Below, one piece after another: positions 2,377 to 64,000 of a stretch of DNA of 64,000 bases (position 1 is its first letter; each line of letters begins with the position of its first letter). The stretch covers positions 14,365 to 78,364 of the forward strand of contig QPGO01000210.1 in the NCBI GenBank assembly GCA_008632985.1, in the 5' to 3' direction. The notes below the pieces were generated by a model that saw only the letters and a program-made list of their open reading frames with translations, had not been told where the DNA came from and searched no databases. The DNA comes from Psammoneis japonica (Eukaryota). The position numbers and the translations under genes are program-made.

Positions 2377-2402
2377 CTGATGGTTCTCCTTCTCTTTTCG
2401 GT

Positions 2403-5924: not shown

Positions 5925-6226
5925 GGTGAATTGTAATAACGCAATCGAGTTGACAGCGAAACGGGATTAATGAACGCTTCAACAAACAACGAACGATAGT
6001 GTGAGGAGCAGCTGCTGTACAAGACTCATCATCTGCGTGCGTTTGATCGACAATCGCTCAAAAATTTGGTTGATTGCCGGCGATACTTCAAACGAGCAAG
6101 CCGCCACAACGGGCAAGCGAAACGATCCACTTGCACTTCTGTAGTCATACACCGGTATGGCTATCTCGCACCACACAACGTCAACCGTTACAAATCTATC
6201 TACGGTGTTCCAGGTGGCTTGACAAG

Positions 6227-24830: not shown

Positions 24831-25099
24831 TCTTCTATGTATTACTATTGTTCTAATTTCTCGCTGCTTTTGTTGGTTCTTTTGCAGGGAATTCATGAAT
24901 CGGTAAAGGGTATACACATCATGTATTTTTATGAAAGACAACGCAGGAGCAAGTACTTTAACGCAGGGGATGCAGGTGCGTTGGTTTTTTTTTTTCGAAG
25001 CGAATGGCGCGTTTAAAATCACTGTTGAGAGCTTTTGTTGACATGTAGTTTCTTGCTGTATAAGAGAGACGTACGAATCCTGGTGCGAGTATACATCCT

Positions 25100-27283: not shown

Positions 27284-27599
27284 TGTCACATTGTAATCGC
27301 ATCTCGGTTTGGCAATTTTTGTTTTTTTATGTGTTTTCTTTGTTGTGGTCGATGATCGACGACTCCCTTGCAGTCTGGCACAACATAAATGTTAAACAAG
27401 ACGATGTCCGCAGTCGTGGGAGTTTGTGTAGCAGCATGTAGGAACACTACCAGATGAAAACACGATTGCAATTAAAGACAACAAGGCCCTGTAAGTTTGC
27501 GAATGTCGCAGATGTTTCCACGACCCACGACACAAAAGATTGGCTCTGTTGACACTTGGTTGCAATTTTCTAACTTCCAATCACCATTGTTCTAAACGT

Positions 27600-43260: not shown

Positions 43261-43497
43261 CAGCGGTACGACAGCATTAGAGGGAATTCATGAATCGGTA
43301 AAGGGCGCACATGTATTTTATGAAAACCAACACAAGAGCAAGTACTTCCACGCAGTCGATGCAGATGCGTTGGATGCTGTTTTTCCGATGCAATGGTCCA
43401 ATTGATGCCACTGTCAAGAGCTTATAGAGGTTTTGTTGATATGTAGCTTCTTGCCGTATAAGAGAGACGTTCGAATCCTGGTGCGAGTATGCATCCC

Positions 43498-45687
43498 TCA
43501 CTCTCCGAAATAACGAAGAGGGGTGAAACCCGCTGGCTTGGACGATCCCTCGCCGGGCAAGATATCCTTGACCATCCTCGTACCTTGAGAAGTTCCATCT
43601 GTGACCCATGGCTCTTCGCCATAATAGGGACTAGCTGCACTGAAGAACAGCTGATCTTGGAACACGACTAAATTTCGAGGAAAGGATCCTTCGGCGCCCG
43701 GTTTGATATCTTTGACCATAATAGTGCCTTGCCTGCTCCCATCAGAGCGCCACAGCTCCCTTCCATGTATGCCATTATCGGCCGAGAAGAATAGGTTATC
43801 GCGGAACGAAGCAAATTCCCTCGGAATAGAGTGGGAATGATGGCCCGGATCGGAGCCACTGAATCCGCTGTTTATGTCCTTTACCAGATGGGTTGATGCT
43901 AATGTCTCGGGGGTGGTCACCCACAGCTCCCTTCCAAGTTCGCCTTCGTCTGCCGAGAAGAAAAGCTTTCTGCCTGCCACAGTCAAGCCTTTAGGTGGCC
44001 TTTGGAACGACTTTATGCTAGAACTGTAATGTCCTTGATGAGTGACCCTCAACTCATATTGGCCTTGGCCGTTACCGGCCACAAAGAACAGAACCCCCCC
44101 AAGATGAGAGTGGTTATACACAGTGAGCTCTCGCGGTAATGAGCCCTTGCGGCCTTCAGCTATGTCCGTCATCCTCCGAGCGCGACTTCCATCCGAACTC
44201 CATAACTCCCTGCCGTGAGCGCTATCGAATGCTTGGAAGTATAAACGGTCCTGGAATGATGTTAGCTCACGAGGCGTATAACCATACGCATAGTCTCCGT
44301 TCACGCGACTTCTTGTTCTGTCATTCTGGATGACCCACAGCCCACTGTACGCCCCAAAAAAGAGCTTGTCGCCAACTACAGCAAACTCAGAAAAGCCGGA
44401 ACAGTTGGGCTTGAAACGTTCAGTTCCACCTTGCGTTCCATCTGTTACCCACAGATCAATGAAAGAGGTCTGAGAGTTAGAGGCAGCGGCAAAGTAGACC
44501 CTGTCCTTGAAGACGGTGAAGCGGACCGGTATGGAAATGCCTGGGCCTGGGTAGAATCCTTGACCATGACAGTACCTTTGGCGCTGCCGTCAGATTTCCA
44601 GAGCTCGGCACCATTTCTACCATTACCAGCGAAAATGATCTGATCTCCAAAGGACGTCAATGTGTGATCCAGTAGGCCGCCATGTGAGATATCTTTCACG
44701 AGTTTTGTTCCTTCGGAGGATCCATCTGTCACCCACAACCCGGGTCCTCCCACACCATTACTGGCAGAGAAGGCCAAAAGCGGCTTGTACACAGAAACTG
44801 TGTCACCAGCGACCTCTATGGCAGAAAAACCCTTTTTTACAACTTCATAATAGGCACGGAAATCAAACCTACGTTCACCCAGGTCGCCAGTTATTGTCTT
44901 TGTAATATTGCAAAAATTCACCATCGTAGGTGAAGTGAAGGAACTTGATGGAAGAGGGCATTCCTTTCCCAGGTCTTCCGAGGTGTCAAGGTCGACGAGG
45001 CGAACAACCCTAATTGGAGAGGTCGTCGCATATCGAAAAAAGATGAAGGTGACTGAAGTGCCAATTTGTGCTACGGTCGGATATGCCCTGACAAAAACAG
45101 GCTTGTAAACGAAAACTGTTGCACCAGCATCCTCCATGGCAGAAAACTGCCCTTCGACTTGATAGTATGCGCGGAATTCAAACCTACGCTCACCAACGTC
45201 GCCAGTCATTGTTTTTGTAATGTGGCATGTATGCACCATTGTAGGTGCGAGGGAACGTGATGGAAGGCCGCATTCCTGTCCCAGGTCTTCAGAGGTGTCA
45301 AGGTCATCGAGGCCTACAATCTTGATGGGATAGGGCGTCACATATCTATGACGAAAGAGGATAGAGAAGGTGACGGAAGTGCCGATTTGGGCTTCAGTCG
45401 GATTCGCACTGACCGCAACGCCAAGAGGCGGTGCTGGCAGGGTCTTACGATTGACGGCAGCTTCCTTGACAGCATCAAATGGACGATTTTAACAGATACG
45501 ATCGAATGAGAACACCGTCGTAAAGGGATTCGTAAGCACTCAGTCCGGCTTGTTCGCATACCTGCTGGAGGACCTTCAGTCCTCGAAGGTGATGGGGCGC
45601 CACGCCGTGCGTGTCTGCCTGTCCGGTTGCGTTTTCCACAACAACGCACAGCACGATAACGAGTGATAGAAGAAAGAGGGAGGACAT
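43498..45687 (-). CDS. ELWxxDGT-repeat protein, copy 2 (frameshifts at ~44540 and ~44310)
   Basis: Collinear with copy 1: signal exon MSSLFLLSLVIVLCVVV, the same intron donor, Ig-like repeats, ELWSSDG/ELWRSDG and the C-terminus RYFGE. Confidence 0.85.
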
Positions 45688-45829
45688 CGTCACATTGCAA
45701 TATCTCGTTTTTTTTTTCATTTGTGTGTTTAATGATCGGCGACATCCCTTGTTGTGGTCTGGCACAATAAATGTTCCGATGCCACGATTGCAATTAAAGT
45801 CAATGAGGCCCTGCAAGTTTGCGAATGAC

Positions 45830-48800
45830 TCCTCGCATCCCGAAAGATCTGCATGTTGCCATCACGCGCGACATGTCAGAAAAATGCGCGGCTGCTGCGC
45901 AGTTTCGCAAGATGTTTTGCTCGAACATCCATGACCTCACAATGAGACAGCAGCGCTTTACCTGCACCACCGCTGTTGACGATGGGCACCATCACAATGT
46001 CCCCTGCTCTGCCCCCACTTCTGCTGCTTCTCATTGTGGTGCTGCAATGTTGTGCCAGCTCACCTTGACAGTGCACTTTGGCGCACAGCATCTGGCTGCT
46101 GCCTGCGTGCGGTGTGCAAGAAAACGACATGGCGGGCAAAGCCTTCCCTCCCAGAAAATGAAGCAGAGGGCACCAGAATCAAGTCACAAGGAGAGCGCAA
46201 GATTGGCATCAGGGGAAATGGTGAAGCGGCCCCCAAAAAACTGCGCAGATCTGCCGCAACAACAAAGCGCAGCTGCGGGAGCTCTGGGCAGCTGCCTCGC
46301 TTGCTGAGTCAATGGCCGGCGGGATTGACAAACAGTTTTTGATGTCAGTGCACAGGGGGGGGTGCAGTCTGGTGGCANTTGCACCTCTTTCCTCAAGTCT
46401 TTGTCTCACAAAGATGCCGCAAGCTGGGGAGGGTCGAGGCTGCTCTGCAGCCCACGAGAGCTGCTGTCCATGTCAGAGGCGCCCTTGCCGCCGGCACAAG
46501 CCAGTGCAAGCTCTGTGGACAAGCTCCATCTGCCTGTCTGCTGCCTGCCCATGAACCTGCCAAATCAAGTGCTGCGACCAGCACTGCAGAGCCTTCAAGG
46601 GCACATGAAAAGCTGGGCCTGAAGCTCTGCGGTGCACTGGGCAGGGCTTCAGCCCCAAGCGATGTGCCTTTGGACTTTTTTCTTGTTTGTGAGCTGGTTC
46701 TTTGTCCAAAAAAGCTTTGTTTGTGCACCCATGCTGGCAGTTTTTTGAAGCTCTTTTGAAGGGCTGGCTTGAGAGTGTGCTGAATTGGAAACGGTGCGAA
46801 GCCACACAACAACCTTGCTCTGCCTGGAGCTGGAAAGCACCGCTGCCTCCATCTGCCTGTCTGCTGCCGGTCCATCAGCCTGCTCAATCCAAGCATGCAT
46901 GGTGATTGTCCCTTGTGTCAACAAGGGCTGTGGCCAGCACTGCAGAGCCTTGAAAGGCACATGGAAAAGCTGGGCCCCAAGCTCTGTGGTGCACTGGGGG
47001 CAGGGCTTCAGCCAGCCCCAAGTGAGGCAGGTGCCTTTGGACTTTTTTCTTGTTTGTGAGCTGGTTCTTTGGCCACAAAAGCTTTGTTTGTGTGCCCATG
47101 CCAGCAGACTTTTGAAGCTTTTGAAGGACTGGCTTGAGAGTGAGCTGTGTTGGAAATGGCGCAAAGTCGCGCAACCTTGTTCTGCCTGGAGCTGGAAAAT
47201 GCTGTTGGAGCTGCAAGCCACCTGCTTCCTTTTGCTGCTCAAGAGAAGCCACAGACCCAGAGACAGAGAAGCCCACAGCAGTTTTGACCCAAGCCTTCCG
47301 GGGTTCGGCATCAACCATGGGGCCACGCATGGAGCAGGTGGGCCTCAGAGTGGTGCTGGCCTTTGTGCAGCCCTTGTTGGGGCTGGAAGCAACAAGCTCA
47401 TCTTGTGGGGTGTTGCGCTGTGGTGGGCAGAGTGCACGTGGCAGGTGTCATGCCACAGCCAAGTTTGTCACCCTGCCACTTCTCTTTTGGCTGGTGGTTC
47501 TTGGGTTCTTCAGCACACAGTCATTTCTGTGGCCCTGGCTGCATCTGCTTTGACAACTGCAGCAGTTGTTCCCTCTGTGGCACAGAGCACCAGTGTGGGC
47601 TCTGGTGGAGTGTGCTCTTGAGAGCAGCGGCCACTTTTGTCTTGCACTTTGTGGGGTTGACCAGTTGTTTGTGATGTGCAAGGAGGGCCAGCATGAATTT
47701 GGCTTCTTCTGGGGGGCAGCTTGAGCCCCAACATCCCTGTGCTTCAAATGCCATCAGGAGGCTGTGCTGGTTCTTTGAAGGTCTTCTCAGCAAGAGCGTG
47801 CTTGAGCACAGCATCTCATGTGTTGTGCAAGCAAAGGTGCTGCCAGTCTTGCTTGCTGCTGCAATCAGCAGCAGCTGGGAAAAGCCCTGACATCATCTGA
47901 GATCGGAGGTTGTTGGCACACACCTGTGGAGACAGAAACAGCTTCCCAAAGCCATGCCAGAAGTGCCCCAAATCACAAAAACAAAACATCATCCAAGGTC
48001 AGACATTGAGCTGCCATTGTTTGTCATGCAGGGCTGCAAGCATCTCTTTCAACACACGTGCAAAAGCTGGACAGCTTGGTCATCACAGAGTTTCTTGGCA
48101 GTGTCCTCCAGAAGGCCACAGCTCCACCTTTTGTCCTCTGCCTTCAATCCAAAGCACAAAGCTTCAAGCCAGGCAAACTTCTTGGTGACAAGCACACTGT
48201 CACCAAGTTGGGCAACTTTCTCTCATGTTGGGAAGCTCTCAAGATGCTCCTCTTGGATCAACCCAGACTGGTGCCACTTTGCTGCAATGCCCAGCTGGGG
48301 CAGCTTGGCATGGAGAGGCAACACTTGGTTGACAAGATTTGTCACTTTCTTTTGGGCTCACGCTGAAGCAGAACTCCACCAAAGCAAAACACAGCCACAC
48401 GCAGAGCATGATTCAAAAACAGACAGGCTCCCGGAGGGGGGGGGGGAGGCAACAAGTGTTGCTGTCTTGGCATCCCGCCCACCCCTCTTTTTGAGTGGGA
48501 TTCTTTGCACCCCGTTTTCTTCTGTGTGCTGCTTGCTTGCTGCAGACTTTTGTTTGTGCTGGCAAAAGCATCTGGTGGGTGTGACCACACAAATCCAAAT
48601 TGCAACTTTTGAGCTGAGCACCACAGAGAGAACAGTCCCTTGATGTCCCAAGGCACCATCTGGCAAAATCAGCACATGAGATGGACCATCTCCAAATGTT
48701 GCTTCTGGCAGCCAGACAATCTTTGTGTTGCACTCACTGCAATGCAGTGCGCCCATTGCCCACCACTTCACTTTTTCATTTTTCTCAACATCTTGTGTTT

Positions 48801-50584
48801 TTCAACTCTGTCATGCACTTGGCTGCAAAAGTGCACAGCACGGCTGTGAAATGATGAGGTTCTGTCTTCCCAGAGTTGTGCTGCAATCAGGTGCGGAGCC
48901 TCGTGGATGCTCTAGAAAAATGGAATCTTGACAAAAACAGCTTCAGAAAAAACACTTTTCTTGTCATTTCTTGTGTCTGCAACTCTCTTTGTTGGCATCA
49001 ACAACAACACCAGAATTGCCTCCAATGCCACAGCAAAGAGAGTGTTTTTGGTCATTGCACACAACATCCACTTGGCTGCGCTTGTCACAACTTGAGCACA
49101 GCTGTCCAGCTGCAGGCAAAGGCCAACCAAACTTCTTTGCTCTCGTGCGGGGATGTCAAAGTGAAGTTGCCTGCAGATGCTGGAAACCATGTCTGCGGTT
49201 GTTGCAACAGCATTTCAGAGGGTGTTGTTGCCAAAAACATGTTTTGTCACACAAACAGCATCAACACAATGAAACAGGGGCACTCCTGCTTTGCTCTGCC
49301 CTCTCTTCTGGAATGAAAGAGAGAGCAACAGCTGACCAAAGCAGGTCTCTTTGCTTCCAGCAGCTGAGAGCAGCAAGAGAGCAGAGGATCTCCACAAAAC
49401 ACACCACAACACTGACAGACATTTGGACCTGATGGAGTCATGCAACATCCACTCCTTTCCACTGTGTTTTCCTGTGGCCACTGGACATCAACTGAAAATG
49501 CAAGAATCATCACAACAGAGAGCCGCGCCACCTTGACCTTGCAGGCTTGAGGTGTTCGAGTTGTTTTGTTGCTGCTCAGCAGCTGCTTCAAAAGCTCCTG
49601 ACAAAAAGTGACTTTTTCAACTTCCAGGGCTGAACTCTCAGGAACAAACTGTGTTGGCATGATGCATCAAAACAAGGAGAGGCTCCAAGACCTGGTCTCG
49701 TGTGCACGCGGCCAATGTCAGAACCAAAGCAATGGGCCCAAAGAGAGAGATGTCACAACAGCACCCACTGATCCAGCAAGAAGCACATCAGTTGATGACA
49801 GCTCATGTTGCCTTTAACAGTGAACACCAAGTCCTCCCATGATCTGGATGAAAATCAGCTGCAGACAAGAAGCCCCCCCACAACTTGGGTGTCGTTTGAA
49901 AAGTGTGGCCATTTGTGCTGTCAAGATCATCGCCATTGTTGGTGTCTGCATCAGATGGAGCATGACAGCATGGGCCCAAGGGGACAGTGAAGACTTTGTT
50001 TTCCACTCAGGAATGAAGTCACGCTGAATGTTTTGCAAGGAAATGAGCCCAGGTGTCAGTCATTTGAAAAGCCAAGTGTGTGCTGCCAACTGGAAAGTCA
50101 GGGTCGGAGCAGATGGAACCCAAGGGGTTTGAGCTGGTGTTTTCACAGAAAAAATGACAAAGGCCAGAAACAAATTTGTTTCCACCCACACTCAAAATGG
50201 TTTTCCTCCTCCCAGCGTCAGCTGTGCTTCGACAAGAAGACACCAGAAAAACAACAAGTGGGGGGGGGGGGGGCGGCGCAAGCTTCAGGAAATGGTTGCG
50301 CTGCTGTGGATGCTGACATCAACAATGACGAGAATGATGTGATGATGACTTGGCTGGTGTCGAGGATGCAGAGGAGGTTGACACCGCAGCTTCAAACAAC
50401 AGAGCAACATGGTGGTTCGCTGATGATGTGTTGATTGTTGTTTCTGCGATGCGTGCTCTGTGTGGGGGTGGATCGGCACTCGTGACTGACAGATGAAAAA
50501 ATCGAAATGTCGCCGATCCAATTGCCCCCCTCGACAATGGTGCAACAAGCTTGTTGCTCCTGCTGTCTGCTGCACTGCACAGCA
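45830..50584. repeat. Heavily decayed TA-depleted tract with an internal ~300-bp direct duplication; insertion target of the copia
   Basis: Essentially no TA. 46579-46850 resembles 46935-47200. The tract continues on the other side of the copia (56874-57150). One N at 46378. Confidence 0.75.
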
Positions 50585-50792
50585 TGTTTAAACACTCAAA
50601 AGCAGATCAGCAGCGGCAGCTGGTGATGACTGGTGAGTGTTGGGGCGATCAAACAGGTGTTGCAATGACAGCTGTGGCAAAATTGTGAGGATGTGAGAGG
50701 CTCCTCGTCTCTCATTGAAGACCGATGTTCATGAGTCATTTTTGGGACAGTGAGTCATAATGCAATGACGCATGAAATATGACATCTTCACA
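50585..50792 (-). repeat. 3' LTR (208 bp)
   Basis: Direct repeat of 56661-56867, adjacent to the PPT TGAGAGGGAG (minus strand). Confidence 0.95.
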
Positions 50793-50861
50793 CTCCCTCT
50801 CATTTTGATCTCATGCATCTCAAAAATGAAGGTTTGACGCACTTTGCGCGCGAATCCACTT

Positions 50862-53800
50862 TTAAAGCACTTCAAATACCTGCCAACCCATTGCTTTCGG
50901 TCGCAACCAAAGCAGAACGTCCAGATTGACCGCTTTAGTTAGAAAATCGGCCAATTGTGCAGCAGTGTCGATAGAGTGGATTGAGATCTCCTTTCGACTG
51001 ACACAGTCACGGAAATGGTGCAGCTTCACGTTGAGGTGCTTGGTGCGCGGTCTGTGCTCATGTGCCTTCGCCATTTCCAGCGCGCCGCTGTTGTCCTCAA
51101 AAACTTTGCAGTGCATCTTCGCCGTCGTCGAGTTGATTGGACACCCTCGCAACTTCAGTTCCTTCAACATTTCCATCACAGGGATGGCCTCTCGCAAGGC
51201 ATGCGACAATCCGGTGTGTTCACTTTCGGTGCTGGACAACGCCATTTCAGTCTGTAGCTGAGACTTCCAAAGGATCGGACAACCAGCGTAAGTGATGACA
51301 TACCCGTGACGGGATCTTGCGGTGTCTCTGTCGCTCGCGGCTTCCTTTCGATCCCAATTGCCGCTGAAGTCGGCGTCTACGTACACCTCCAAATCCTTTT
51401 TGGAATCTGGTTTCAGAATTGCACCTTTGTCTCTCGTGGCATGCAGATGTCTGCCTAGCCACCGTATGGCCTCGCCATGTTCTACCTTCGGGTCTGCAGT
51501 GAATCTCGCGCACTGGTGCGCAATGTATGCGATGTCGCTTCGGGTGCATTTCTCCAAGTAATTCAGCTTACCGATGATCGACCTGTAATTGAAGGAATTG
51601 TCAAATGGTCTTGATTCTGAATGCCTGGATAGGAGCTTGGATGAAGCTGCAGGTGTGTCTTTTCCGACGACACTCGGTTTATCAAGTCGCAAGTCTTTCA
51701 GAATCTGGTTGATCAGGTGGGGTTGCGTCAGGTGCATCGTTCCATCCGACTTTCTGGTGATGTTTATGCCAAGGAAATCTTGAATGTCGCCTTCCACCGT
51801 GACATCTAACTTTGCTTGCTTGATTTCCTCTATGATCTTGTTGATCTCAGATTCATCAGGGCCTGCGAGCAAAGAATCATCCGTGTGGAGAAGGCAAATC
51901 GTTTTTCCGCGATAAAACACACACTCGTCGACCTTGGATTGCTCGAAACCCAACTTGTTGACTAACTTGTCCACGAGACACTTGTTCCAGACTCGCCCTG
52001 CCTGCTTCTGCCCGTGTGCATTCCGATGCAAGCGTAGGACATAATCCTTGGTGTTGGCGCCTTCGAGCTCGAATCCGGACGGAATCTCCATGTAGAGATC
52101 CTTTTCGACCGGTGCTTGAGGAAAAGCGAGGACATAATCCAGTTGCTTTGAATGCCACCCATGTGCTCCCACTAAGGCAAGCAGCAGCTGCATTGAATTT
52201 CGTGATGCAACCGGCGCACACGTCTCATCGTAGTCTTTTCCTTTTCTCATCCTCGAGCCGTCAATGTTAAGTCGCGCTTTCCACTTCTTCACCTTTCGGG
52301 TGCGCACGTCTCGCTTTCGCTTCATTTGCCACACTGCAGGTAGCACTTTTCTGTCTTGTTTCACCTGTGATCTTGGAATGATGGAGTGGTTTCCATTTTC
52401 CATTTGATCCTTCACCTCTTTTTGCATCGCCTTGAGGAACTCCTTGCGGCCCGGTTCTTTCATGGCTTGGTGCATGTACATGGTGTCAGGATCTGCTGAT
52501 GCTTTGTGGGCAAGGAGGGGATTTGCGACTTCTTCTTGGAGGGCTTGCGAGTCTCGAGGATGCAGTGCGGCCAAGCACAGCAGTTCTCCTTCGACGCCTC
52601 CTTCAGTGTCTTTCTTGATCTCAGTCTCCATGGACTCAATCAATCTGCTGACCGGTTGGCTCTTGCGCCCTGATCGTGTCACTTTTGGTTCAGCATGACC
52701 GTCTCGTGCTTGATCAGACTCGCCCTCATGTGGAGGTGCTTCTAGAGATTCAGTCCTTTCGGATGCGTTGGCCTTGTTGTGATTGGGCTCTCGGCGCATC
52801 TCTCGTTCGGACACCGATTGGCTGTCGGTTACTGCAGTGTCGCCATCTTGTGGCCGTGTTAGTTGGTCAGCCCAACGAATGGTTCTTCGTTTCTTGCCTT
52901 GCCCCGCTCCCTCTGAAGCTCGTGCGCGCTTCTTCTTGGGACGATCCGGAGCACTTGTGGGAGCCGTTTTGGTCTCGCCACTCTTCTTGGTTCCTTTTGT
53001 CTCCCTCTGAGCAACGAACTTGGCTTTTACTTGCCACAGAGAATCGTAAGTGTCTTGCTTCAGCGTGTGGAATGATGGATCAAATTTTACGTGGAACTGT
53101 GGACTCACCAGTGCCGACTCTCGGTCGAGTGCCAGGGCCACGTTCTTGCCATGTTGTGGGCTTCGGCCTGAGCACATTCCAACCCTTGATCTGTCTTTCC
53201 ATTTGTGGTGCGGCAGACCTGATTGCAATGTGGAGTCCAATGCGTACACTGGGCAACCAAATGGTTTCCAGTGCTTTGGATTGGTGGCAACTTTCGTGTT
53301 GGAAAACAGCTGGAGTGGGCTTGATCGGTCTTTGTGTTGGAGGTTGGGCGCATGATTGATGGCGTCACAGGCCATGCGAATCGCGCAGGGCCATAAATTT
53401 GCGGCAATGCACTTCTTCCAGCGGCTGTTGGCATGGATCAACATTGTTCGGGCGAGCTCTTGGAGCTCTCGGATCCGTCGCTCCGCCGTGCCATTTTGGT
53501 GATGAGCGCCCACGGCAGCGAACGTCAGTTGTTGCCCTTGTCTCCTGCACGCATGCACCCAGTCGTTGGCCTTGAACATTCCGTTGTCAGCATGGCAAGC
53601 CTGAACGGTCACGCCACAACTCTTTGCATGCAACTCGAAAGCTTGTTTTCCCTCTGACGTTTCAGCTGCCGTTGCTGTCTTTTGCAGACAAACGCAACCC
53701 AATTTGGAGTGCTGGTCGACATAGACTGTGGCGCACTTGCACCGTTTTGTGGTCAAGAAGCCCGTCATTTGTGCGATTGGACCCGGTGTCGGAGACACCA

Positions 53801-55010
53801 ATTGATCCACTGAGACAATTTGGCCTGGTTTTGTTGGAGCTTCTATCTTGGCATCATCGTTCCGTGCCTTGTCGCGCCATTTTCTCTTGGTCGCCTTTGC
53901 GCACAGGCATGCCGAGCAAGCAGGTACGTTGCACTTTGCGAGCCGTCTTGGTAGAATGCCCATCTTTGCCATCCATTGCAACTTTGTGAAGCCAATGTGC
54001 CCAAATTGTTGGTGGCACTTGAGGAGCAGCGCCGCATCCGTGTCTGGCTGTCTGTCTTCTTCATCTTCCACCACTCGTGGCGGTGGAGCAGTCGGCACTC
54101 CCTCTGAGTTGCCACTGCTTGTTGGCCCATTTATATCAAACGTTGCTCCCAGTGGGCAGACGCGCTGATCGGTGGCCAACCCTGTCTCTTGCGCTGCCTC
54201 CTGGGGTTCAGGTTGCCATTCCTTGGCGATGCTTTTTGCATCGCATTGGACATCCGTCTCTTCCTCGTCCTCGTCATCACTGACGACTGCTGCATCTAGT
54301 GCAAGGAGAGGATCGTCTGCTTCTTTCGCTGGATCGATGTCCGCGTCGGCGCAAAATGCTTCGAACTTCTGATAACCCGGTGCTAAGCGGAAGGTGGCTA
54401 CGTTCGTAGTCTCGCTCAACGGCATAGTCAGTCGATGCTTTCGTTGGTTCCAGAACAGTGTGACCTCTTTCGAGTTTGTCTCTGATCCAGTTCCTTCGAT
54501 CGGCTTGTTGTCTCTCAGTGCCTTTGCCCAGTGTTGGGGACTTAGCAGGCGGACCTTGCCGTCAGGTACGTAGAATGAGTTGGGGATTACGAACTTGTGT
54601 GTCTTTCCCTCATCGTCACTCCATCTCCATGGCAGGGTGCCAACTTTCACACCTGTAGTTCGAGAGCCACCGAATCCCTCAATGGCTCTTCTTGTGTCTC
54701 TCAGCTCGCCAATGAAGTCTTCTGTTCGGTCGGACATGCAACCTGTGCATCTGTTGTCCACTCCGACTGGCCCAGAATCGGTGTCAAACGTGACGGTGTG
54801 CTCTTTTATGTGTTTCCCTTCGGCTTGCATGGCCACCATGGCTAGCGCCATAATCGAGCCCCATGTTCGCCTCTTCTGTCTGGGTTTCACCTTTGTTGCG
54901 GCACGTTGGATCTTGATTGTTCTCCCTCTTCTGGGTTTGTTGGCAGTGGTGATGCTTTCTACAATCTGCTCAATGCTGGTCCCCATCTTGTGTGTGCCTT
55001 CAGTGAGCAT
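50862..55010 (-). CDS. pol: Copia pol polyprotein (protease, integrase, RT, RNase H); open but missense-damaged
   Basis: 1382-aa ORF with GVDNRCTGCMS (protease), H..FGH..C..C (integrase HHCC), VSVDQ/HADNG/QNG.AER (DDE), KARLNIDG, HTDD (for Y.DD), VYVDADFSG and FEDNSGA. Confidence 0.93.
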   Translation of the reverse strand: MLTEGTHKMGTSIEQIVESITTANKPRRGRTIKIQRAATKVKPRQKRRTWGSIMALAMVAMQAEGKHIKEHTVTFDTDSGPVGVDNRCTGCMSDRTEDFIGELRDTRRAIEGFGGSRTTGVKVGTLPWRWSDDEGKTHKFVIPNSFYVPDGKVRLLSPQHWAKALRDNKPIEGTGSETNSKEVTLFWNQRKHRLTMPLSETTNVATFRLAPGYQKFEAFCADADIDPAKEADDPLLALDAAVVSDDEDEEETDVQCDAKSIAKEWQPEPQEAAQETGLATDQRVCPLGATFDINGPTSSGNSEGVPTAPPPRVVEDEEDRQPDTDAALLLKCHQQFGHIGFTKLQWMAKMGILPRRLAKCNVPACSACLCAKATKRKWRDKARNDDAKIEAPTKPGQIVSVDQLVSPTPGPIAQMTGFLTTKRCKCATVYVDQHSKLGCVCLQKTATAAETSEGKQAFELHAKSCGVTVQACHADNGMFKANDWVHACRRQGQQLTFAAVGAHHQNGTAERRIRELQELARTMLIHANSRWKKCIAANLWPCAIRMACDAINHAPNLQHKDRSSPLQLFSNTKVATNPKHWKPFGCPVYALDSTLQSGLPHHKWKDRSRVGMCSGRSPQHGKNVALALDRESALVSPQFHVKFDPSFHTLKQDTYDSLWQVKAKFVAQRETKGTKKSGETKTAPTSAPDRPKKKRARASEGAGQGKKRRTIRWADQLTRPQDGDTAVTDSQSVSEREMRREPNHNKANASERTESLEAPPHEGESDQARDGHAEPKVTRSGRKSQPVSRLIESMETEIKKDTEGGVEGELLCLAALHPRDSQALQEEVANPLLAHKASADPDTMYMHQAMKEPGRKEFLKAMQKEVKDQMENGNHSIIPRSQVKQDRKVLPAVWQMKRKRDVRTRKVKKWKARLNIDGSRMRKGKDYDETCAPVASRNSMQLLLALVGAHGWHSKQLDYVLAFPQAPVEKDLYMEIPSGFELEGANTKDYVLRLHRNAHGQKQAGRVWNKCLVDKLVNKLGFEQSKVDECVFYRGKTICLLHTDDSLLAGPDESEINKIIEEIKQAKLDVTVEGDIQDFLGINITRKSDGTMHLTQPHLINQILKDLRLDKPSVVGKDTPAASSKLLSRHSESRPFDNSFNYRSIIGKLNYLEKCTRSDIAYIAHQCARFTADPKVEHGEAIRWLGRHLHATRDKGAILKPDSKKDLEVYVDADFSGNWDRKEAASDRDTARSRHGYVITYAGCPILWKSQLQTEMALSSTESEHTGLSHALREAIPVMEMLKELKLRGCPINSTTAKMHCKVFEDNSGALEMAKAHEHRPRTKHLNVKLHHFRDCVSRKEISIHSIDTAAQLADFLTKAVNLDVLLWLRPKAMGWQVFEVL

Positions 55011-55326
55011 GGTCCACCCTCGTCGTACCCGGTGCCATCTCTTCCGTTTCGGCGTGCATCCGGGCTTGTCAGTTGGGGTCGGTCGCGTAGAAGTAAATGT
55101 AGATCAGGACCATCGCTGTCGACAGTAAAATTAGAGCATGAGCTAGCAGCTTTTGTTCAATCACTCGTTTGTTTTCAAATGAGAGCGACGTCATTATAAT
55201 GGTCATGTGGTTGCAGGCGAATGCCTGCCAGGCGAAGAGCGCAGTTGCCTTGATGATCGCAAAACACTTCGACGCCATGGTTTCCAACCCATGTCCATCA
55301 CAACCGCTGCAGCCGTGCTCAAGGAG

Positions 55327-56638
55327 TCATTGAGACTCCTCGCCCGAGTCCTGCCCGTCCACTGCGGCTTGGCATGCTTTGTTGAGCTTGAGCCGTGGGT
55401 GTCCGTCAGGTCCCTTCTGTTTCTTGTGGGGTGGTGCTGTAGACTCGTTTTTCTGTGGCTTGTTCTTGCCTTCTCTGCCTTCACATTGGGAGGGCTTGTG
55501 GACACGCCACTTGCCAGAACACTTGCCGCCGGCACTCTTCTCACACCAACAGCATGCGGTGCCTTTCCAAGTTCTCGGGTTGGTTGGCTGGTCTCGTTTG
55601 GGACGCCTGTGTTTCTTCAACCACGCAGGCTTCCCGTCTTTCTGAGCACCTTGAGACGCGTCGTGGTCTTTTCCCTTGTTTCCCGTCTTCTTGTGGGATT
55701 TCTTGCTGAGGGCCTCCACTTGAGCTTGGAGAGCCAAGATCTTTTCTTCAGACGCACTGGGGGTGTTCCACAGCAATTTCTGAAGCAGGTTCTTGCACTT
55801 GTTGCCTGCGAGGTTCATAAAGTTGCGACGCCGACATGTCCTCGCCCTCTTCACACTGTTCTTGCTTGCGCTCGATGCACTTGACAAAAACTTTGTCGGA
55901 AGCAGCCAGGCACCCCTTGAAGAGGTTCGCAAGCAGGTCCTCAGTGGTTTCGCCTCGTGACTTAAGGGCGGCAAGCAACAATGCCACGTGCTGGTTGAAC
56001 TTCAAGATGTCATGACCGATCGTTGGGAGACAGAGGTCGAGTTGACTCAATTTCGTTCGGATCGCACTCGTCGTGGCGTTCGCATCGAGGTGGGATTCTC
56101 TGATGATGATCTTGAGAAGGAGATTTCCGGACATACGATCTCCGATCTTGCACTCTGATTCCCAGATCCTCACTTTATCCTTTCCGGCTTTCGATGTGGA
56201 GTTCATCAGGCAGCGATGCGCTAGACAGGTGTCTTGCGCTGCGCGACTCTCGTTGCCGATGTGGGATTCTTCAAAGCCCCGGATCCTCTCTGGGTCCATC
56301 TGACCACAGTCGGTCAACAGATTAGACCTCTCGGATTCCAGGATGTCTTCGTGGTCTTCTGGGATCATGAATGTTCCGTTCTCATCATTCCACCCAAACT
56401 CTCTGGCTCTGTCTTCCAAGTTCTTGAGGAACTGGCACAGGTCTCCTGGTTCACAATCGAACAATTCCTCGTCCAGCGGCTTGGTGGCTTGCTCAAAAAG
56501 CTTACGACCCGCACTCGAACGACAATCGATGACCGTGGTGATCGCTTGTGCCGGAGCCAATGCAAATGGGACATCTTCGGGAACATCTCCTAGCTCCGGT
56601 CCAGAAACGGACGAAGCGTCTGAAGAGGCGTCAGACAT
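55327..56638 (-). CDS. gag: Copia gag (1-nt frameshift at ~55820)
   Basis: PFALAPAQA, SGNLLLKIII, DILKFNQHV and LLANLFKG in the first frame. The second frame carries the C-terminal knuckle WKGTACCWC...WRVHKPSQC. Confidence 0.85.
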
Positions 56639-56645
56639 GTTACTC

Positions 56646-56660
56646 AGCGCAGAGGAAGCG
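56646..56660 (-). other. Putative primer-binding site complementary to the D-arm of initiator tRNA-Met
   Basis: The + strand AGCGCAGAGGAAGCG(TG) directly abuts the 5' LTR and resembles eukaryotic tRNA-iMet GGCGCAGCGGAAGCGUG (recalled from memory). Confidence 0.65.
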
Positions 56661-56867
56661 TGTTTAAATCTCAAAAGCAGATCAGCAGCGGTAGCTAGTG
56701 ATGACTAGCAAGCATTGGGGCGATCAAATAGGTGTTACAATAACAGCTGTAGTAAAATTGTGAGGATGTGAGAGGCTCCTCGTCTCTCATTGAAGACCGA
56801 TGTTTATGAGTCATTTTTGGGACAGTGAGTCATAATGTAATGACGTATGAAATATGATATCTTCACA
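56661..56867 (-). repeat. 5' LTR (207 bp)
   Basis: Direct repeat of 50585-50792; retains most TA sites. Confidence 0.95.
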
Positions 56868-57453
56868 ACAGCATCTGCCGTGATGTCCCTGTCGCTCTGG
56901 CCCCTGTCTATCTGGCCGCAAAAGAAGTGAACTTGTTGATGGTCCTGCACATGTTGTGGACATGTAGGATGCTCTTGGGCTGGATGCTGCACGGTGTTGG
57001 CGCTGACGCATCGCACACTCATTCGCCACACGGTTGAGGTGTGCACTCTGTTGACTGCGGGCTGCGACATGCTGCGCATTGCACAATTCTCTTTGTTTCG
57101 GCCTGCTGGTGCGGTGCTGCGTTCGCCAGAAACGAAATGTACAGTGGGGGGCAAACGTGGATGTAATGGTTCTATGTGTGCGTGCAAGAACACGCGATAA
57201 GCTCTTTCATTTATTACTGTTGTTCTTATGTCTACCCTCTTCCGTTGGTCCTTATGTAGAGGGAATTCATGGATCGTTAAAGGGTGCGTATCACGTATCA
57301 TGTATTTCACGAAAGACAACGCAAGAGCAGGTACTTTATGCAGCCGATGCACAGGTGATGGTCCGTTTTATTTCATTGTCGAGAGATTTTGGTGTGATTT
57401 AGATTGTTGCCGTAACAGGGATACGTTCGAATCCTGGCGCTAGTATACATCCC

Positions 57454-59626
57454 TCACTCTCCGAAGTAACGGAAAGGCGCGAAACCCGCTGGCTTGGACG
57501 ATCCCATGCCGGGTAAGATATCCTTGATCATCCTCGTACCTTGGGAAGTTCCATCTGTGACCCAGAGCTCTTCCCCATTGTAGGTAGTATGTGCGCTGAA
57601 GAACAGCTGATCTTGGAAAACGACTAAATTTCGTGGAGAGGATCCTTCGGCACCCGGTCTGATATCTTTGACCATAGTAGTGCCTTCCTTGCTCCCATCA
57701 GAGCGCCACAGCTCCCTTCCATATGTGCCGTCATAGGCTGAGAAGAATAGGTTGTCGTGGAACGAAGCAAATTCCCCCGGAATATACTGGGGATAACGGC
57801 CCGGGAAGACTTTGACCAAATGGGGTGATAATAATGATTTTTCGTGGATGATCACCCATAGCTCAGTTCCAAGCTCGCCGTCGTCAACCAAGAAGAAAAT
57901 CTTTCTGCCTACCACAGTCGAGCCCATAGGTGGCTTTTGGAATGACTTAAAAGGGGCACTGTAATATCCGGAATGAGAGACCCGCAACTCGTATCGGCCT
58001 TGGCCGTTGGTGGCCACAAAGAAAAGAAGCCCCACAAGATTATCTGGGTTGTACACGGTGAGTCCTCTCGGCAATGAGTCCTTCTTGCCTTCAGCTATCT
58101 CCAACATTCTCAGAGCGCGACTTCCGTCAGATCTCCACAACTCCCAGCCATGTGCGCTATCGAATGCTCGGAAGAATAAGCGGCCCCGGAATGATGTTAG
58201 ATCATTTGGCGTATAATCAGACGCATACTGTCCGGGCACGCGACTTAATGTTTCGCCATTCTGGGTGACAAACAGGCCCCTGTTCTCGCCAAAAAAGAGC
58301 TTCTCGCCAGCAACAGCAAACTCAGAGAAGCCTGAACAGTAAGGGAAGAAACGATAAGTTCCTTCTTGCATTCCATCTGTTACCCACAGGTCGACTAAAG
58401 AGGACTTGGTGCTAGAGGATGCGACAAAGTAGGCCATGTCCTTGAAGACGGTAAAGCGCCTGTTTATGGTCATGTATGCGCCTGGGTAGAGAGTCTTGAT
58501 CATGACAGTACCTTTGGCGCTGCCATCAGATTTCCAAAGCTTGACACCATCTTTGTCCTGACTGGCGAAAATGATCTGATCTCCGAAGGACGTCAATGTG
58601 TTTGTCAAGATGTAACCCAGTCCATGTGAGACATCTTTCACTAGTTTTGTTCCTTCGGAAGATCCATCTGTCACCCACAACCCGGGTCCCCTCGTACGAT
58701 TTCTGGCAGAGAAGGACAACAATGGCTTGTACACAGAAACCGTGGCACCAGTGACCTCTATGGCAGAAAAATCCTCTTTACAACTTCATAATAGGCACGG
58801 AAATCAAACCTGCGCTCACCCAGGTCGCCAGTCATTGTCTTTGTTATGCTACAAAAATTTACCATCGTAGCTGAAGTGAGGGAACGTGATGGACATTCCT
58901 TCCCCAGGTCTTTAGATGCGTCAAGGTCAACCAGGCGCACAACAGTAATTGGAGAGGATGTCAATGCTCGAAAGAAGATAGTGAAGGTGACTGAAGTGCC
59001 AATTTGCGCTACGGTCGGATTCGCTCTGACCAAAAAAGGCTTGTAAACGGAAACTGTTGCACCAGCATCCTTCACGGCGGAATACTGCCCTTCGACTTGA
59101 TAATAGGCACGGAATTCAAACCTACGCTCACCGACGTCGCCAGTAATTTTCTTTGTAATGCTGCATGTATGCACCATCGTAGGTGAGAGGGAACGTGATG
59201 GAAGGCCGCATTCCTGTCCCAGGTCTTCAGAGGTGTCAAGGTCATCGAGACCTACAATTTTGATGGGATAGGGCGTCGCATATCTATGCCGAAAGAGGAT
59301 AGAGAAGGTGACGGAGGTGCCGATTTGGGCTTCAGTCGGATTCGCACTGACCTCAAAGCCAAGAGCTGGTGCTGGCAGGGTCTCACGATGGAAGGAAGGT
59401 CCCTGAGAGCATGAAATGAATGATTTTTTAACAGATACGATTGAATGAGAACACCATGGTAAAGGCATTCGTACGCACTCAGTCCGGCTTGTTAGCATAC
59501 CTGCTGGAGGACCTGGAGTCCTCGAAGGTGATGGGACGCCACGTCGTGCGTGTCTACCTGTCCGATTGCGTTTTCCACAAAAACGCACAGCGTAACAACA
59601 ATGAAAAGAAAAAATAGGGATGACAT
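57454..59626 (-). CDS. ELWxxDGT-repeat protein, copy 3 (frameshift at ~58775)
   Basis: Collinear with copies 1 and 2, including the signal exon, intron, ELWRSDG/ELWVTDGT repeats and the RYFGE end. Confidence 0.87.
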
Positions 59627-59949
59627 TGTCACATTGTAGCAGCATCTCGGTTTCGCAATTTTTGTTTTCTATGTGCTATGTTTGTTGTGGTCGATGATCG
59701 GCGACCTCCCTTATGCAGTCTGGCACAATAAATGTTAGACAAGACAATGTCCGCCGTCGCGGGACTTCTTGCAGCACCAGTAAGAACACTGCCAGATGAA
59801 AACACGATTGCAATTAGAGACAATGAGGCCCTGTAAGTTTGCGAATGTCTCGGATGTTTCCACGACCCACGACCCACGACACAAAAGATTGACTCCATCG
59901 CTTGGGTGCAATCTTCTCATTTCTAATCACCATTGTTCCAATCGTCAAG

Positions 59950-62900
59950 CTTTGATCAAAGAGTCAATGCATTGTTTGCACTTGTGCAGCCGATGCAGCT
60001 GCTTTGGAGGCTTTTCCGAGGCCACGCTTCAAAGTGGTTGTTCAGGCACAGTGCCTTTTCGTCCGCTGCAATGACGTGAGCCATGGCCAAAGCTGATTCT
60101 GGCACAAGTGAGATGGAGTCAATTCCTTGTTCCACAAGAAATGTGGCAATGTTGTTGGGCTCATTGCTGGGGAGCTTGTCGGCAAAAGCCAGTGAGTGCC
60201 ACGATGTGAGCCAGCGCTGGCTGCTCCAGCAGCTGACTTTGCCGCAGGGCTGCTCTTGTCAAACAGCCTTTCCAGCTCACTGTCATCATTTTCTGAACCA
60301 AAAAAAAGCTGTGCCAAGTCATTGAGTCCATTGAAAAAACAGTCAAAGAGAGCAGTGAAGTCATCAGCAGCTGGGGTGCTGGCAGGGGCTTCACAGCACA
60401 CTGCACCCCAAACTTCGAGGGTTTTTTGTTGCCCTTGCTTTGGCCCCCTCTTGGCAAGAACATCAGTCACAACACAAGGGAACAACAAGCTCTGCATTGT
60501 TCAGGCACCTGCTTTGTTTTGAGCATGAGACAGACCCTTGTGCTCAAACTCAAATGTGTTTTTGAGCTTTTGGCAGAGACATCACACAGCTCTCCAAGAA
60601 GCCAGCTCCAATTTTCTTCATCCAGCTCAAAGACCTTGCCACTCACAAGACAACAGTGCTTGTTTGGTTTGAAGCTGCTGGGGTGAACAACAGCCAGGTG
60701 AGGATGAAAGGGAGCAGTGGCACCCCCCCACGCCTTTGGAGAGCTTTTCAATGAAAAAGTGCTGGGGGTGGGAATCATTTCAGGCTTTTTCACAAACCAC
60801 CACACACAACAGCCTCACTTGCTCAATTGAGAAAGATCACCAAATTTGGCACAACCACAGAACCTTGGTAAGCTGGCCCAACTCCAGTGATGGACAGATG
60901 ACAGCTCAAAAGAGCAGAGCTGGGATCTCCCAAGATGGAGCTTTGCCCTGGTTTTGGAAGGTCATCAATGCTGAACTCAGTGTGCTGAGTGTCAGCAACT
61001 CCATGGTGGGTGAATCTGCTGCTGCCATTGAGCCAGTTTGTTGCACACAAATTGCCAGCTTCAGGAGAGTTACAGGGATGAACAGCGCAGGTTTGCTTTC
61101 ATCCAACACAGTGGTTGATGACAGCAGGATCCTCTGCTTTTTCAACTGTGGGTTTGAACAGCTCTGGTGCTCATTGGGGCCCCATCTTTCTGCCAACAAT
61201 GGACTGTCAAAGACCACACAAGCTGGCAACAACAGCAATGCCATGAAATCCCACATGTCAGGGTTGAGTGCAAAGGCAGTGCCCAAACTTGCAGCATCAC
61301 TCCACACCATTGTCAGGTGATGGTGCAACCAGCAGATGCTCTCCAGGATGGCATCTGCCGCTGCCGCTTCCCCCCCAGCAACCTCACTTGAAGATGAGGC
61401 TTGCTGCCTGTCAGAGGATGTGTGCAGCTGTCAGATCTTCAGCGGTTTCCAAGCTCTGTGTGGCAATGGAAGTTTCCACACATTGCTGCCACACACACTT
61501 TCATGCACCACTTCAGCATTTTGTGAATGACATCTTTTTGCCATTTTTGCTCAGCTTTGCAGCTGCACCATGCTGACTTGCACTGCAATGCCCAATGCCA
61601 CAACATTGGCATTTTTTGGTGTGTGCCTCATGTTGCACATGCACACATTCCCACATGACTTTGGTGGCATTTTGCATCATTTTGCAGTCACATGCATTGC
61701 TCCCAGCACACAAACATTGGATCTTGTGGGCAGAACTCATTGGGCCCACATCACATGGAGTCCTGGCTGGGGCTGAAGTGTGCACATCAGCAGAATTTTG
61801 TTTCTCTCACTGGCAGAGGACCTTTCTTCTATGCACATGCTGACCACGCAATGCACTTTGCTGCCTCAAGATGAGTTGTCAGTGTTGGAGATTAAAAAAG
61901 AACAAACAGGGGGTGCAAAACACAGTGAGCCACACTGCCCTGTCTTTGAGCAATGCACAAACAACAGCAAGGCAGAACATGTGCTCACACACACCACCTG
62001 GCTCCAGCCCCCTCTTCAGGCCAAAAGAAGGCCAAGCTGTTCTTGCAGATTGCTTTGATTGAGAACCATGCTGCAGGTGCTGGTTGTTGTGGCAAATCCA
62101 TCACAAAAACTTGCACCCCAACTGGTGCCAACTCTTGAGCAAGCTTGCTGAGATGGAAGGTGTCAAGGGCTGGGCCTTGATCAACAAGTCCATTGCTGTG
62201 AAGGCTTGTGCTGCATTGAGCCAAACAACCCTTGAAGCAATTCTGGCAGAAATTGTTGAAATGGTCAGAGTGACCCACACATCCAATCATCATGGTGGAA
62301 ACCAGACAAATTCTTTTGCCAACAGGAGTCAAGGAACCAACTCCAACAGAAGAAACCAACAGCCCAACACTGCATGTCCCGTGCACAGCATTTTACAAGC
62401 AGCATCAACAAAGCTGTGCCAACCGTGGTCAACAATGGCAAGGCTCCAACAGTCACAACCAGAGCAATCAGAAGACTCAGCCAAACCATCAACACAATGC
62501 AAGGAGTTGTTCTCATCAGTTGGGAAGAGAACAATCAAGTTCAGAGTCAACCTGCTCATTCAACTCAAGTTTGTTTGTTTGTTTGTTTGAACCCAAGCAA
62601 TGCTGACAGCACATTGTTGCAAGACATCAACAAAATCTCTGATGTGTTTGAAGTGATGAGCACTGTTCAAGAGCCCCAACCAAAAGTGCTGGACCCTGCA
62701 ACAACTGCAAAAGTGACAGCTCAGTTTCTCAATGATGGAACAGGCCAGAGCAAATGTCACCTTGGCCTGCTCAACACTGGGGCACGTGGTGATTTTGTCA
62801 AGCGTGATGCACTCAAGTCTGTTCCTCATTCCATCAAAGGGGCTGTGGGTGCAAAAGTCAATGGAGGGTGCAAAGCGATCAAATCTTCCCAGCTTCCCAA

Positions 62901-64000
62901 CATTGAAGTCAAGCTTCTGGAATTTACAAGCATGAAGAAGCATCTGCCAATGCTTGCATCAAAGAGAAGCAAGGCAACTGGGTGCCTTGATGTTGTCATT
63001 GGCGCTGCTGAGCACACCAAAGCAATGGCATTGTCCGCAACTTCAAGACAGACTGCCTGTTGCACAGGATGATGTTGCTGTCCCAACGTGTCCAGAAGGG
63101 TTGATGGACCAAAACAAGGCTTTGCCTGACTTTGTGCTGGCTGCCACACAATGTCAGACTTGCACCATTTGAAGCAATGAGTGTGTGAGCAGCTCAGTTG
63201 TCAGAAGATGGCATCATGGTGCAATGATTTGACAGCAGAAAGTCAAAAAGAAGATCTGTTGGAATTGATTGGATGTCATCCCAGTTCAGTTGATGAAGCT
63301 CTTTGTGAAGCTCCTGGACCTCTGAACATGCTCTGAGTCAAGCCTGGTGCTGAGCCTTGTTGTGCCAGAGCTTGTGTCATTCCTCAAGCTCTTTGTCCCA
63401 TTGCAAGGGAAGAAGTTTTGATGAGCTTGAAATTGTTGGCATTGTTGCTTGCAATGTTGCTTTTAAGTGGGGCAAGCCATGTTTGTTCTCACCAAAGGAA
63501 AACAGTGGAGTCCAACATGTCTTAACCAACTTGAAGCACCCCAACTCATGTCTCACAAGTCACCCTCATCTGATGTCAAACCCTGATGATGTGATTTGGA
63601 AAATCAACAGGTTTGCATGGGTGCTTGCTTTGATCTCAACCACATGGCCATCATCATTCTTTTGTTCTTGACTGCCAGTCAAGCAAGCTCTGAGCAACCA
63701 TCTTGCCATGGGGCAAGTGTTGTCAGCCACCCTCAACTCCCTCAAGGAGCCACGCCTTCAAGAAGTGACATCTTTCAAGCTTTTGTGAGCCAGTGCTTTG
63801 GTGATGCAGAAGACACCGCTGCTTTCTTTGACAATGTTCTTTTGTTTGCAAAATCAGCCTTTGTTCAGCACCTTCTTCAAAAACTTGTCAAGAATGACCT
63901 TTGCACACACATTGAAGGAACTTTTCTTGCTGGTGCCAAGGTTGGCATTTTTGGGACATCATGTCAAAAGGAAGGGTGTCACGCCTCAGAAGCAGAAAAT
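59950..64000. repeat. Heavily decayed TA- and CG-depleted tract
   Basis: Almost no TA or CG over 4 kb; TG/CA-saturated. Confidence 0.8.
62600..64000 (+). mobile_element. Degenerate Ty3/gypsy pol remnant (protease + RT)
   Basis: GLLNTGA (~62764, for LLDTGA), PCLFSPKENSGV..LTNLK.PN (~63480), TILPWGKC (~63697) and FFDNVLLF (~63824, for Y.DD). RT follows the protease directly, as in gypsy elements. Confidence 0.7.

Follow-up and report, generated by a model that had tools for sequence, protein, structure and literature searches.

How can the Pol reading frame of a retrotransposon stay open from stop to stop when the tyrosine of its YxDD catalytic box has been lost? The question is raised by a Ty1/copia element that spans positions 50585-56867 of a 64,000-nucleotide stretch of Psammoneis japonica DNA (assembly GCA_008632985.1, contig QPGO01000210.1, positions 14,365 to 78,364 of the forward strand), called the window below; all coordinates are positions in this 64-kb window. 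A first-pass annotation, made from the letters alone, had pointed out that conserved tyrosine codons of this Pol had become cysteine and histidine codons and had read from this a direction of mutation, TA to TG or CA. The present analysis upholds that direction. The explanation that we favour, and regard as likely, is a localised hypermutation of TpA to TpG or CpA that acted on this copia copy after its integration, and that has gone to completion in neighbouring blocks of the window.

By its sequence features this is a complete Ty1/copia element of diatom type. Its limits, found first as direct repeats and then refined from the junction sequences, enclose two long terminal repeats (LTRs) and a polypurine tract, and it is flanked by a 6-bp target-site duplication, TGCTG(T). 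Pol (P0001) matches Pfam RVT_2 (PF07727), the reverse transcriptase (RT) domain, over residues 916-1141 (E 2.4e-40; 139 bits against a cut-off of 31.6), and its match to gag_pre-integrs stays under the cut-off (20.8 against 28.4 bits). In a protein database search with Pol, 1045 proteins among 8000 scored candidates had E <= 0.001; the relatives used here are the 120 matches listed out of these, diatom-type copia Pols carrying PF13976 and PF07727, which match with 54-63% identity over 92-99% of the query region, in most cases over 98-99%. Pol is collinear with them, with the integrase before the RT. The few named proteins among the matches listed belong to the diatoms Chaetoceros tenuissimus, Cylindrotheca closterium and Fragilaria crotonensis, and, judged by these nearest named relatives rather than by reference CoDi sequences, the element appears to be CoDi-like. 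It is one copy of a multi-copy family, several copies being present in X1, a public sequencing run whose read-derived contigs were compared with the window.

Pol departs from its relatives in a highly selective manner. Aligning P0001 with the 120 relatives gave 410 columns with at least 90% conservation, of which 25 differ in P0001. Cysteine or histidine occupies 12 of the 21 conserved tyrosine columns (Y>C seven times and Y>H five times), and at 11 of these 12 the same residue occurs in no relative (0/120 or 0/118), the other column having it in 2/120; the possibility, acknowledged with the original observation, that relatives carry cysteine or histidine natively at these positions is thus set aside. 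When each of the 120 relatives was left out in turn, a mean of 0.03 Y>C/H changes per protein was found, with a maximum of one (four proteins, one each). The loss of conserved tyrosines is confirmed and lies far beyond chance. All nine motifs quoted in the first-pass annotation are present in the P0001 translation and map to tyrosine columns of the alignment: KRCKCATV (KRYKYATV in the relatives), ACHADNG (aYHADNG), WPCA (WPYA), VGMCSG (VGIYLG), ETCAPV (TYAPV), NAHGQKQA (vYGQKQA), SEHTGLSHAL (SEYTGLSYAL), HFRDCV (HFRDYV) and LLHTDD (VLYTDD), the last being the RT catalytic box, where YxDD has become HTDD at codon 51885-51887.

At the codon level, a single TA>TG or TA>CA change accounts for 17 of the 25 departures; the remainder are one CG>CA, one A>G outside TA, two transversions and four multi-step changes. 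Codons other than those for tyrosine were altered likewise (ATA>ATG, GTA>GCA, TTA>TCA). Lowering the conservation threshold leaves these classes in the lead: at 50%, tyrosine columns gave Y>C 12 times and Y>H 8 times, isoleucine columns gave I>V 9 times and I>M 7 times, and T>A, K>E and V>A ranked next, in agreement with the predicted excess of Y>C/H, I>V, I>M and V>A. The target is the TA dinucleotide, A>G changes outside it making up only 1/25, 1/73 and 6/143 departures.

The LTRs reveal when and on which strand the changes occurred. The two LTRs of a single insertion are identical when integrated. Here, they differ at 12 sites that are TA in the 5' LTR and TG (seven) or CA (five) in the 3' LTR, at two sites that are TG in the 5' LTR and CA in the 3' LTR, and by one 1-nt indel; other substitutions number zero, and the CpGs are kept (5/5) in both. 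The simplest explanation of the TG-versus-CA sites is that an ancestral TA was hit separately in each LTR. Fifteen of 18 inferred ancestral TA have been converted in the 3' LTR (eight to TG, seven to CA), as against the 5' LTR, which keeps 15 TA, has two sites changed to TG and has lost one through a 1-nt deletion. Both strands were affected, as seen in the balance of TG and CA in the 3' LTR and of Y>C and Y>H in Pol (12 versus 8 at the 50% threshold). It was thus the integrated, chromosomal DNA that changed, on both strands and independently in different copies; the asymmetry of the LTRs and the strand symmetry together exclude editing of RNA or cDNA as the main source, and also exclude the polarity of repeat-induced point mutation (RIP).

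Other copies in the X1 contigs bear this out. At 51055-51064 they have CA, TG and TA where the window has TG, CA and TG, and at the LTR indel site the TG of the 3' LTR is matched in them by TA or CA. The direction TA>TG/CA is fixed by the tyrosine columns and further supported by the TG-versus-CA sites of the LTRs and by the TA or CA that other copies have in place of TG. Since all 16 substituted LTR positions lie in TA, TG or CA dinucleotides and none elsewhere, the LTR divergence of ~8% reflects hypermutation and not age, and the earlier warning against dating such insertions by their LTRs was well founded. A runs test detected no significant strand-wise clustering of TG versus CA (z 0.46 for the 41 events in Pol, -1.87 for the 15 events in the 3' LTR and -0.5 combined), and, as to wider context, the surviving TA of the element have a WTAW share (0.26) that is not significantly different from that of the relatives (0.25; Fisher p 0.79).

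That Pol stays open follows from the genetic code: as had been argued at first pass, A>G and T>C changes never yield TAA, TAG or TGA from a sense codon, and the uninterrupted frame is indeed present, with 1382 aa when counted from the ATG at 55010. It is due in part also to a factor that the first-pass annotation had not seen, namely that ordinary mutation since insertion has been about nil (0 background LTR substitutions). In simulations, the open reading frame (ORF) survived 80 random changes in 2.4% of trials, and 80 changes of the RIP type (CA/TG>TA) in 0%. Screens based on ORFs and Pfam matches would score this Pol as intact, given its strong RVT_2 match, which is the miscall that had been foreseen, whereas the copy is probably inactive: its sequence has lost YxDD and 11 other invariant tyrosines, and may carry a gag frameshift. 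In both (2/2) read-derived contigs that cover ~55819-55821, the TTT is one T shorter, and without that T the two overlapping gag frames would join; the window copy, with its additional T, has either a true frameshift or an error of assembly in a homopolymer.

The extent of TA loss in the element can be gauged from its relatives. DNA of eight closer relatives from metagenomes had ratios of observed to expected (o/e) TA of 0.59-0.80 and of CG of 0.89-1.01. Compared with these, the element, with a TA o/e of 0.29, has lost ~57% (about 55-60%) of its TA, in line with the 12/21 tyrosine columns altered. None of the 14 metagenome loci compared resembles the element as a hypermutated relative; one of them, L013, is CpG-poor but is a distant, fragmented match. 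The element is like diatom Ty1/copia elements of the CoDi groups (PMC2806351) in its LTRs, target-site duplication, polypurine tract and a Pol that aligns with its relatives over 98-99% of the length, and unlike its diatom copia relatives in its best Pol identity (63% among the matches listed), its TA content and its lost tyrosines.

The element lies in a window of uneven composition. TA o/e is 0.42 for the whole window and ~0.55-0.65 for its genic parts; CG o/e is 0.85 in the element, and 0.1-0.25 in the cores of four blocks, B1 to B4 (Table 1). Ordinary window DNA has ~20 TA and ~28 CG per 500 bp, and intergenic TA reaches 44-51 per 500 bp (1001-1500 and 6001-7000). On the same scale, the element has 2-11 TA with normal CG, and the four blocks, of 3-5.5 kb, have 0-2 TA and 1-9 CG, with CA/TG at ~1.7-1.95 times expectation. 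The loss is restricted to defined stretches with sharp edges, and the TA-free domains outreach the CG-poor cores by ~100-700 bp on each side. The longest gap free of TA measures 2954 bp, in B3, and among the stop triplets of the block cores, counted over six frames, 763/795 are TGA. The element was inserted within ~40 bp of the edge of B3; the DNA beyond its 3' end is free of TA, and that beyond its 5' end is normal.

Table 1. Positions of the copia element parts, blocks and other features in the 64-kb window
Feature	Position	Strand	Remarks
Pol ORF (P0001)	50862-55103	-	stop to stop, 1413 codons (aa); first ATG at 55010, giving 1382 aa
3' LTR	50585-50792	-	208 nt, TG...CA ends
5' LTR	56661-56867	-	207 nt, TG...CA ends
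Polypurine tract AGAGGGAG	50793-50800	-	directly upstream of 3' LTR
gag region	55327-56704	-	two overlapping frames, 56704-55748 and 56001-55327
Target-site duplication TGCTGT, downstream copy	50579-50584	-	junction sequence
Target-site duplication TGCTGT, upstream copy	56868-56873	-	junction sequence
Block B1	27594-33298		nearly TA-free, CG-poor
Block B2	40013-42894		nearly TA-free, CG-poor
Block B3	45796-50584		abuts element 3' end; 3 TA in 4.8 kb; CpG low only in core, ~46500-50200
Block B4	59835-64000		nearly TA-free, CG-poor; continues past window end
PEP-utilizers_C / phosphoenolpyruvate-synthase-like relic	60045-60500	-	in B4; 24.2 bits against 22.8; PDB 2ols_A, E 3.7e-5
Paralogous gene segment 1	24800-27821		~80% identical to the other two; normal TA and CG; without Pfam family
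Paralogous gene segment 2	43281-45775		as segment 1
Paralogous gene segment 3	57172-60194		as segment 1
Second copia fragment	1-2391	+	RT 1-840, RNase H 1492-2376; other family, 33-37% aa identity

Ordinary sequence divergence in the same window looks quite different. The three paralogous gene segments, each with a TA/CG-free block to its right, differ from one another by transitions and transversions in similar numbers, with TA<>TG/CA making up ~7% of differences, and the same holds for a pair of genes for G-protein-coupled receptors (GPCRs). Where the paralogous flanks enter B1 and B4, identity drops from ~80% to 62-65%, and 58/149 transitions there are paired TG-versus-CA differences, which indicates independent conversion of the same ancestral dinucleotides. 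X2 contigs cover paralogue copies 2 and 3, skipping 73 and 82 bases with GT..AG ends; they also cover the genes flanking the element and have no depth over 45601-56400, which is not evidence either way on expression.

The blocks hold 90 ORFs that run from stop to stop over 90 aa or more; scanning these against Pfam yielded one match above the curated cut-off (1/90), the PEP-utilizers_C relic of B4, and a second (IER) below the cut-off; with this relic in B4, the targets and blocks are not remains of transposable elements (TEs) alone. Comparison of the blocks with one another, by exact 26-mers coded as purines and pyrimidines, tblastx and relaxed blastn, showed no homology beyond B1/B4, which are alike over their first ~800 bp only (62-65% identity), and one 62-nt match between B1 and B3. 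A zinc-knuckle-like CX2CX4HX5C motif (CWKCDKAGHMMKKGC) at 29922-29966 on the plus strand of B1 may be a relic of a retroelement gag. As a separate observation, 8/20 of the TA remaining in the block cores (27951-33000, 40201-42500, 45961-50580, 59951-64000) lie in TTAA, compared with ~6% in relatives, and TTAA may thus be relatively resistant.

The X1 reads reproduce this composition. Contigs of 988, 1413 and 1851 nt match B3 with 0-2 differences each, the X1 contigs together reproduce 4.9 kb of this block, and the word depth over it (52-56) is the same as over flanking single-copy genes; the TA-poor sequence therefore did not arise through assembly or polishing. The sole three differences between the assembly and X1 in B3 (48058, 48272 and 49706) are all CG<>TG/CA; they may be allelic and a hint of continuing CpG decay. 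The single N of the window, at 46378, is also in B3.

A second copia, of another family, has undergone a similar fate at the start of the window. Cysteine or histidine replaces tyrosine at 8/11 conserved columns in its RT part and at 3/7 in its RNase H part, with ETC for ETY, HVDD for YVDD and EAEC for EAEY. It is split at 768-1681 by an insertion of 914 bp that is very rich in TA and bears terminal inverted repeats of 21 nt, the sole mismatch between the two arms being TTAGG versus TCAGG. With unmutated, TA-rich DNA lying inside a TA-poor copia, the process cannot simply be a regional and continuous one.

Two further regions of unusual composition and the remaining genes complete the picture of the window. 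A gene for an HA-domain protein on the minus strand (4536-5431) contains ~201-bp tandem repeats that are 84-93% identical, and is TA-poor (3-9 per 500 bp); these repeats differ in the ordinary way, with transitions about as frequent as transversions. At 15800-17000, a tandem-repeat region with a GC content of 57% is strongly asymmetric between strands, with 5-16 CA and 56-62 TG per 500 bp, and has long ORFs on both strands, without a Pfam family. Besides HA-domain repeats, window genes include those for family-C GPCRs and for PPR and FG-GAP proteins, as fits a diatom nuclear region.

The data establish the direction of change, its dinucleotide target, its strand symmetry, its timing after integration, its independence between copies and its confinement to certain stretches. 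In the process that we consider likely, a copia copy integrated and its TpA was then changed to TpG or CpA by A:T>G:C transitions that could fall on either strand and showed no strong preference for a wider context. Pol stayed open as its invariant tyrosines (TAY) turned into cysteine (TGY) or histidine (CAY). The same process would have run to the end in the neighbouring blocks, where CpG has also decayed to TpG/CpA, leaving CA/TG as almost the sole pyrimidine-purine step. Because the spectrum is purely transitions, the chemistry may be enzymatic deamination of adenine in DNA to hypoxanthine, read as G, and the loss of CpG may be the slower deamination of 5-methylcytosine (5mC) within the same silenced domains. 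On a rough reckoning, one clock under which TA is ~4 times more mutable than CG would also fit the o/e values of the element, the LTR and the block cores. The role would be TE silencing, in keeping with the suggestion made at first pass of a system that serves to inactivate TEs.

Several points weigh against this explanation. TA and CG may be lost through one process or through two. Pol has no strand-wise clustering and hence no sign of a processive single-strand enzyme. As to targeting, the three ~80%-identical gene paralogues are untouched, the 5' LTR is nearly spared though it is as repeated as the 3' LTR, and a relic resembling phosphoenolpyruvate synthase is found inside B4; repetition alone fits poorly as the target, in view of these paralogues, the spared 5' LTR and the single-copy depth of B3. 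Finally, X1 is possibly the assembly's own sample and its library type is unrecorded, so a sequencing artefact at the level of chemistry keeps a small probability.

A more specific version of the hypermutation, to which we give some credence but only tentatively, is a genome defence that mirrors RIP, with a DNA-directed deaminase (acting on adenine at TpA and perhaps on cytosine at CpG) aimed at silenced or repeated DNA. Equally tentative is its corollary that both self-complementary pyrimidine-purine steps would be driven to TpG/CpA, killing TEs by missense and leaving 'fossil' blocks free of TA and CG. RIP in Neurospora and other ascomycetes likewise acts on DNA after integration and on both strands, disables TE copies, inflates LTR divergence and produces dense transitions in defined stretches, whose edges are fairly sharp although the flanks receive some spill. 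It differs, however, in being C:G>T:A at CpA and so creating TA, whereas the change here is A:T>G:C at TpA and erases it; the GC content is not lowered here, no stop codons appear, and RIP indices would miss the pattern. RIP is also confined to duplicated sequence above a threshold of length and identity, and on this point the observations go both ways: the present family is multi-copy in X1, while B3 lies at single-copy depth, the paralogues of 80% identity are untouched and the 5' LTR is spared. RIP is moreover premeiotic and depends on an enzyme of the RID/DNMT4 type; DNMT4 of diatoms is reported in PMC9998398 to be RID-related and of unknown function, and no link to a TA pattern is made there.

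We consider it improbable that the changes stem from error-prone repair in methylated heterochromatin, in which T:G mismatches left by 5mC deamination would undergo long-patch repair with A>G errors of the Pol eta type at TA. Such repair would link both losses, which do fall in the same blocks, and the CG-poor cores lie within the TA-free domains, which are wider by 100-700 bp. The preference of Pol eta is for WA motifs, but its errors also include A>T and A>C and fall at AA too, while the LTR spectrum is purely transitions at 16/16 substituted positions, A>G changes outside TA are as rare in Pol as given above, and 15/18 TA were converted in the 3' LTR while CpG changed at 0/5. Decay of CpG as such, whether driven by methylation or by hypermutation at CpG/TCG (as in basidiomycetes, animals and plants), resembles the blocks in their low CpG o/e and their excess of TG/CA, but leaves TA alone; the element has lost much TA and little CpG (o/e 0.85; LTR CpGs 5/5), and CpG decay accounts for the block cores only.

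Less probable still is editing before integration, by ADAR/ADAT-like conversion of A to I on the element RNA or by a deaminase acting on cDNA, with the changes fixed by reverse transcription. The TA (UA) context agrees with the preference of adenosine deaminases for a 5' U, and different copies bear different edits; hypermutation by ADAR (A>G) or APOBEC (G>A) likewise fills retroelement copies with missense changes, in the case of A>G next to a 5' U/T. Yet those enzymes hit RNA or cDNA before integration, on one strand, and would leave identical LTRs, which here differ at 14 TA-derived sites; T>C on the sense strand is as common as A>G, and DNA other than retroelements is hit too (block margins, the relic in B4 and the flanks shared by the paralogues).

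General neutral decay, under a background spectrum favouring TA>TG/CA and CG>TG/CA with selection alone keeping TA and CG elsewhere, would suit the low TA o/e across the window, in its genic parts as well, but we give it very little weight: the same window has intergenic stretches with 44-51 TA per 500 bp and the TA-rich insertion with terminal inverted repeats in the TA-poor second copia, its ordinary paralogues show transitions and transversions in similar numbers, and the blocks have sharp edges. Just as little weight goes to an artefact in which modified bases of silenced DNA were misread, so that TG/CA are reported where the DNA has TA/CG. The pattern is limited to domains that could be heavily modified, and the provenance of X1 leaves room for it, but independent X1 contigs of even depth (~52-56) reproduce B3, and the TG and CA outcomes are finely intermixed and differ between copies at the same site, which makes misreading at the level of chemistry unlikely. 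A classical RIP-like C>T process, with the cysteine and histidine codons ancestral and the TA states derived, shares the dinucleotide class TA<>TG/CA and would need the same 16 steps for the LTR changes taken alone, but it can practically be dismissed, being refuted by the conserved tyrosine columns (cysteine or histidine in 0/120 relatives at 11/12), by the TG-versus-CA pairs at one site, which demand a TA intermediate, and by a TA content that is depleted, not enriched (o/e 0.29), with no stop codon arisen.

Hypermutation directed at TEs is of a known kind, but no system described in the texts that we searched has this polarity, this target or blocks free of TA and CG as its outcome. A full-text literature search outside subscription journals turned up no account of TpA>TpG/CpA hypermutation, whether from diatoms or from any other eukaryote, and look-ups by term in two papers on diatom TEs (PMC2806351 and bioRxiv 10.1101/2025.10.24.684338) found none there.

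For diatom genomics, the findings mean that ORFs and domain matches overstate the number of functional TE copies and that LTR divergence overstates insertion age, the divergence here being ~8% with 0 background substitutions. TA/CG-free blocks may moreover escape homology-based repeat annotation, because just one in 90 block ORFs has a Pfam match above its curated cut-off and the blocks are mutually dissimilar. The signature can be scanned for through windowed TA and CG observed/expected ratios, and its spread across diatoms is therefore directly testable. If real and enzymatic, this would be a TE-disabling hypermutation whose polarity and target (A:T>G:C at TpA) are undescribed for any genome defence, and it could reveal a natural DNA adenine deaminase, of interest for genome evolution and base editing; were the tentative parallel with RIP to prove true, no natural system of DNA hypermutation directed at adenine would have preceded it among eukaryotes.

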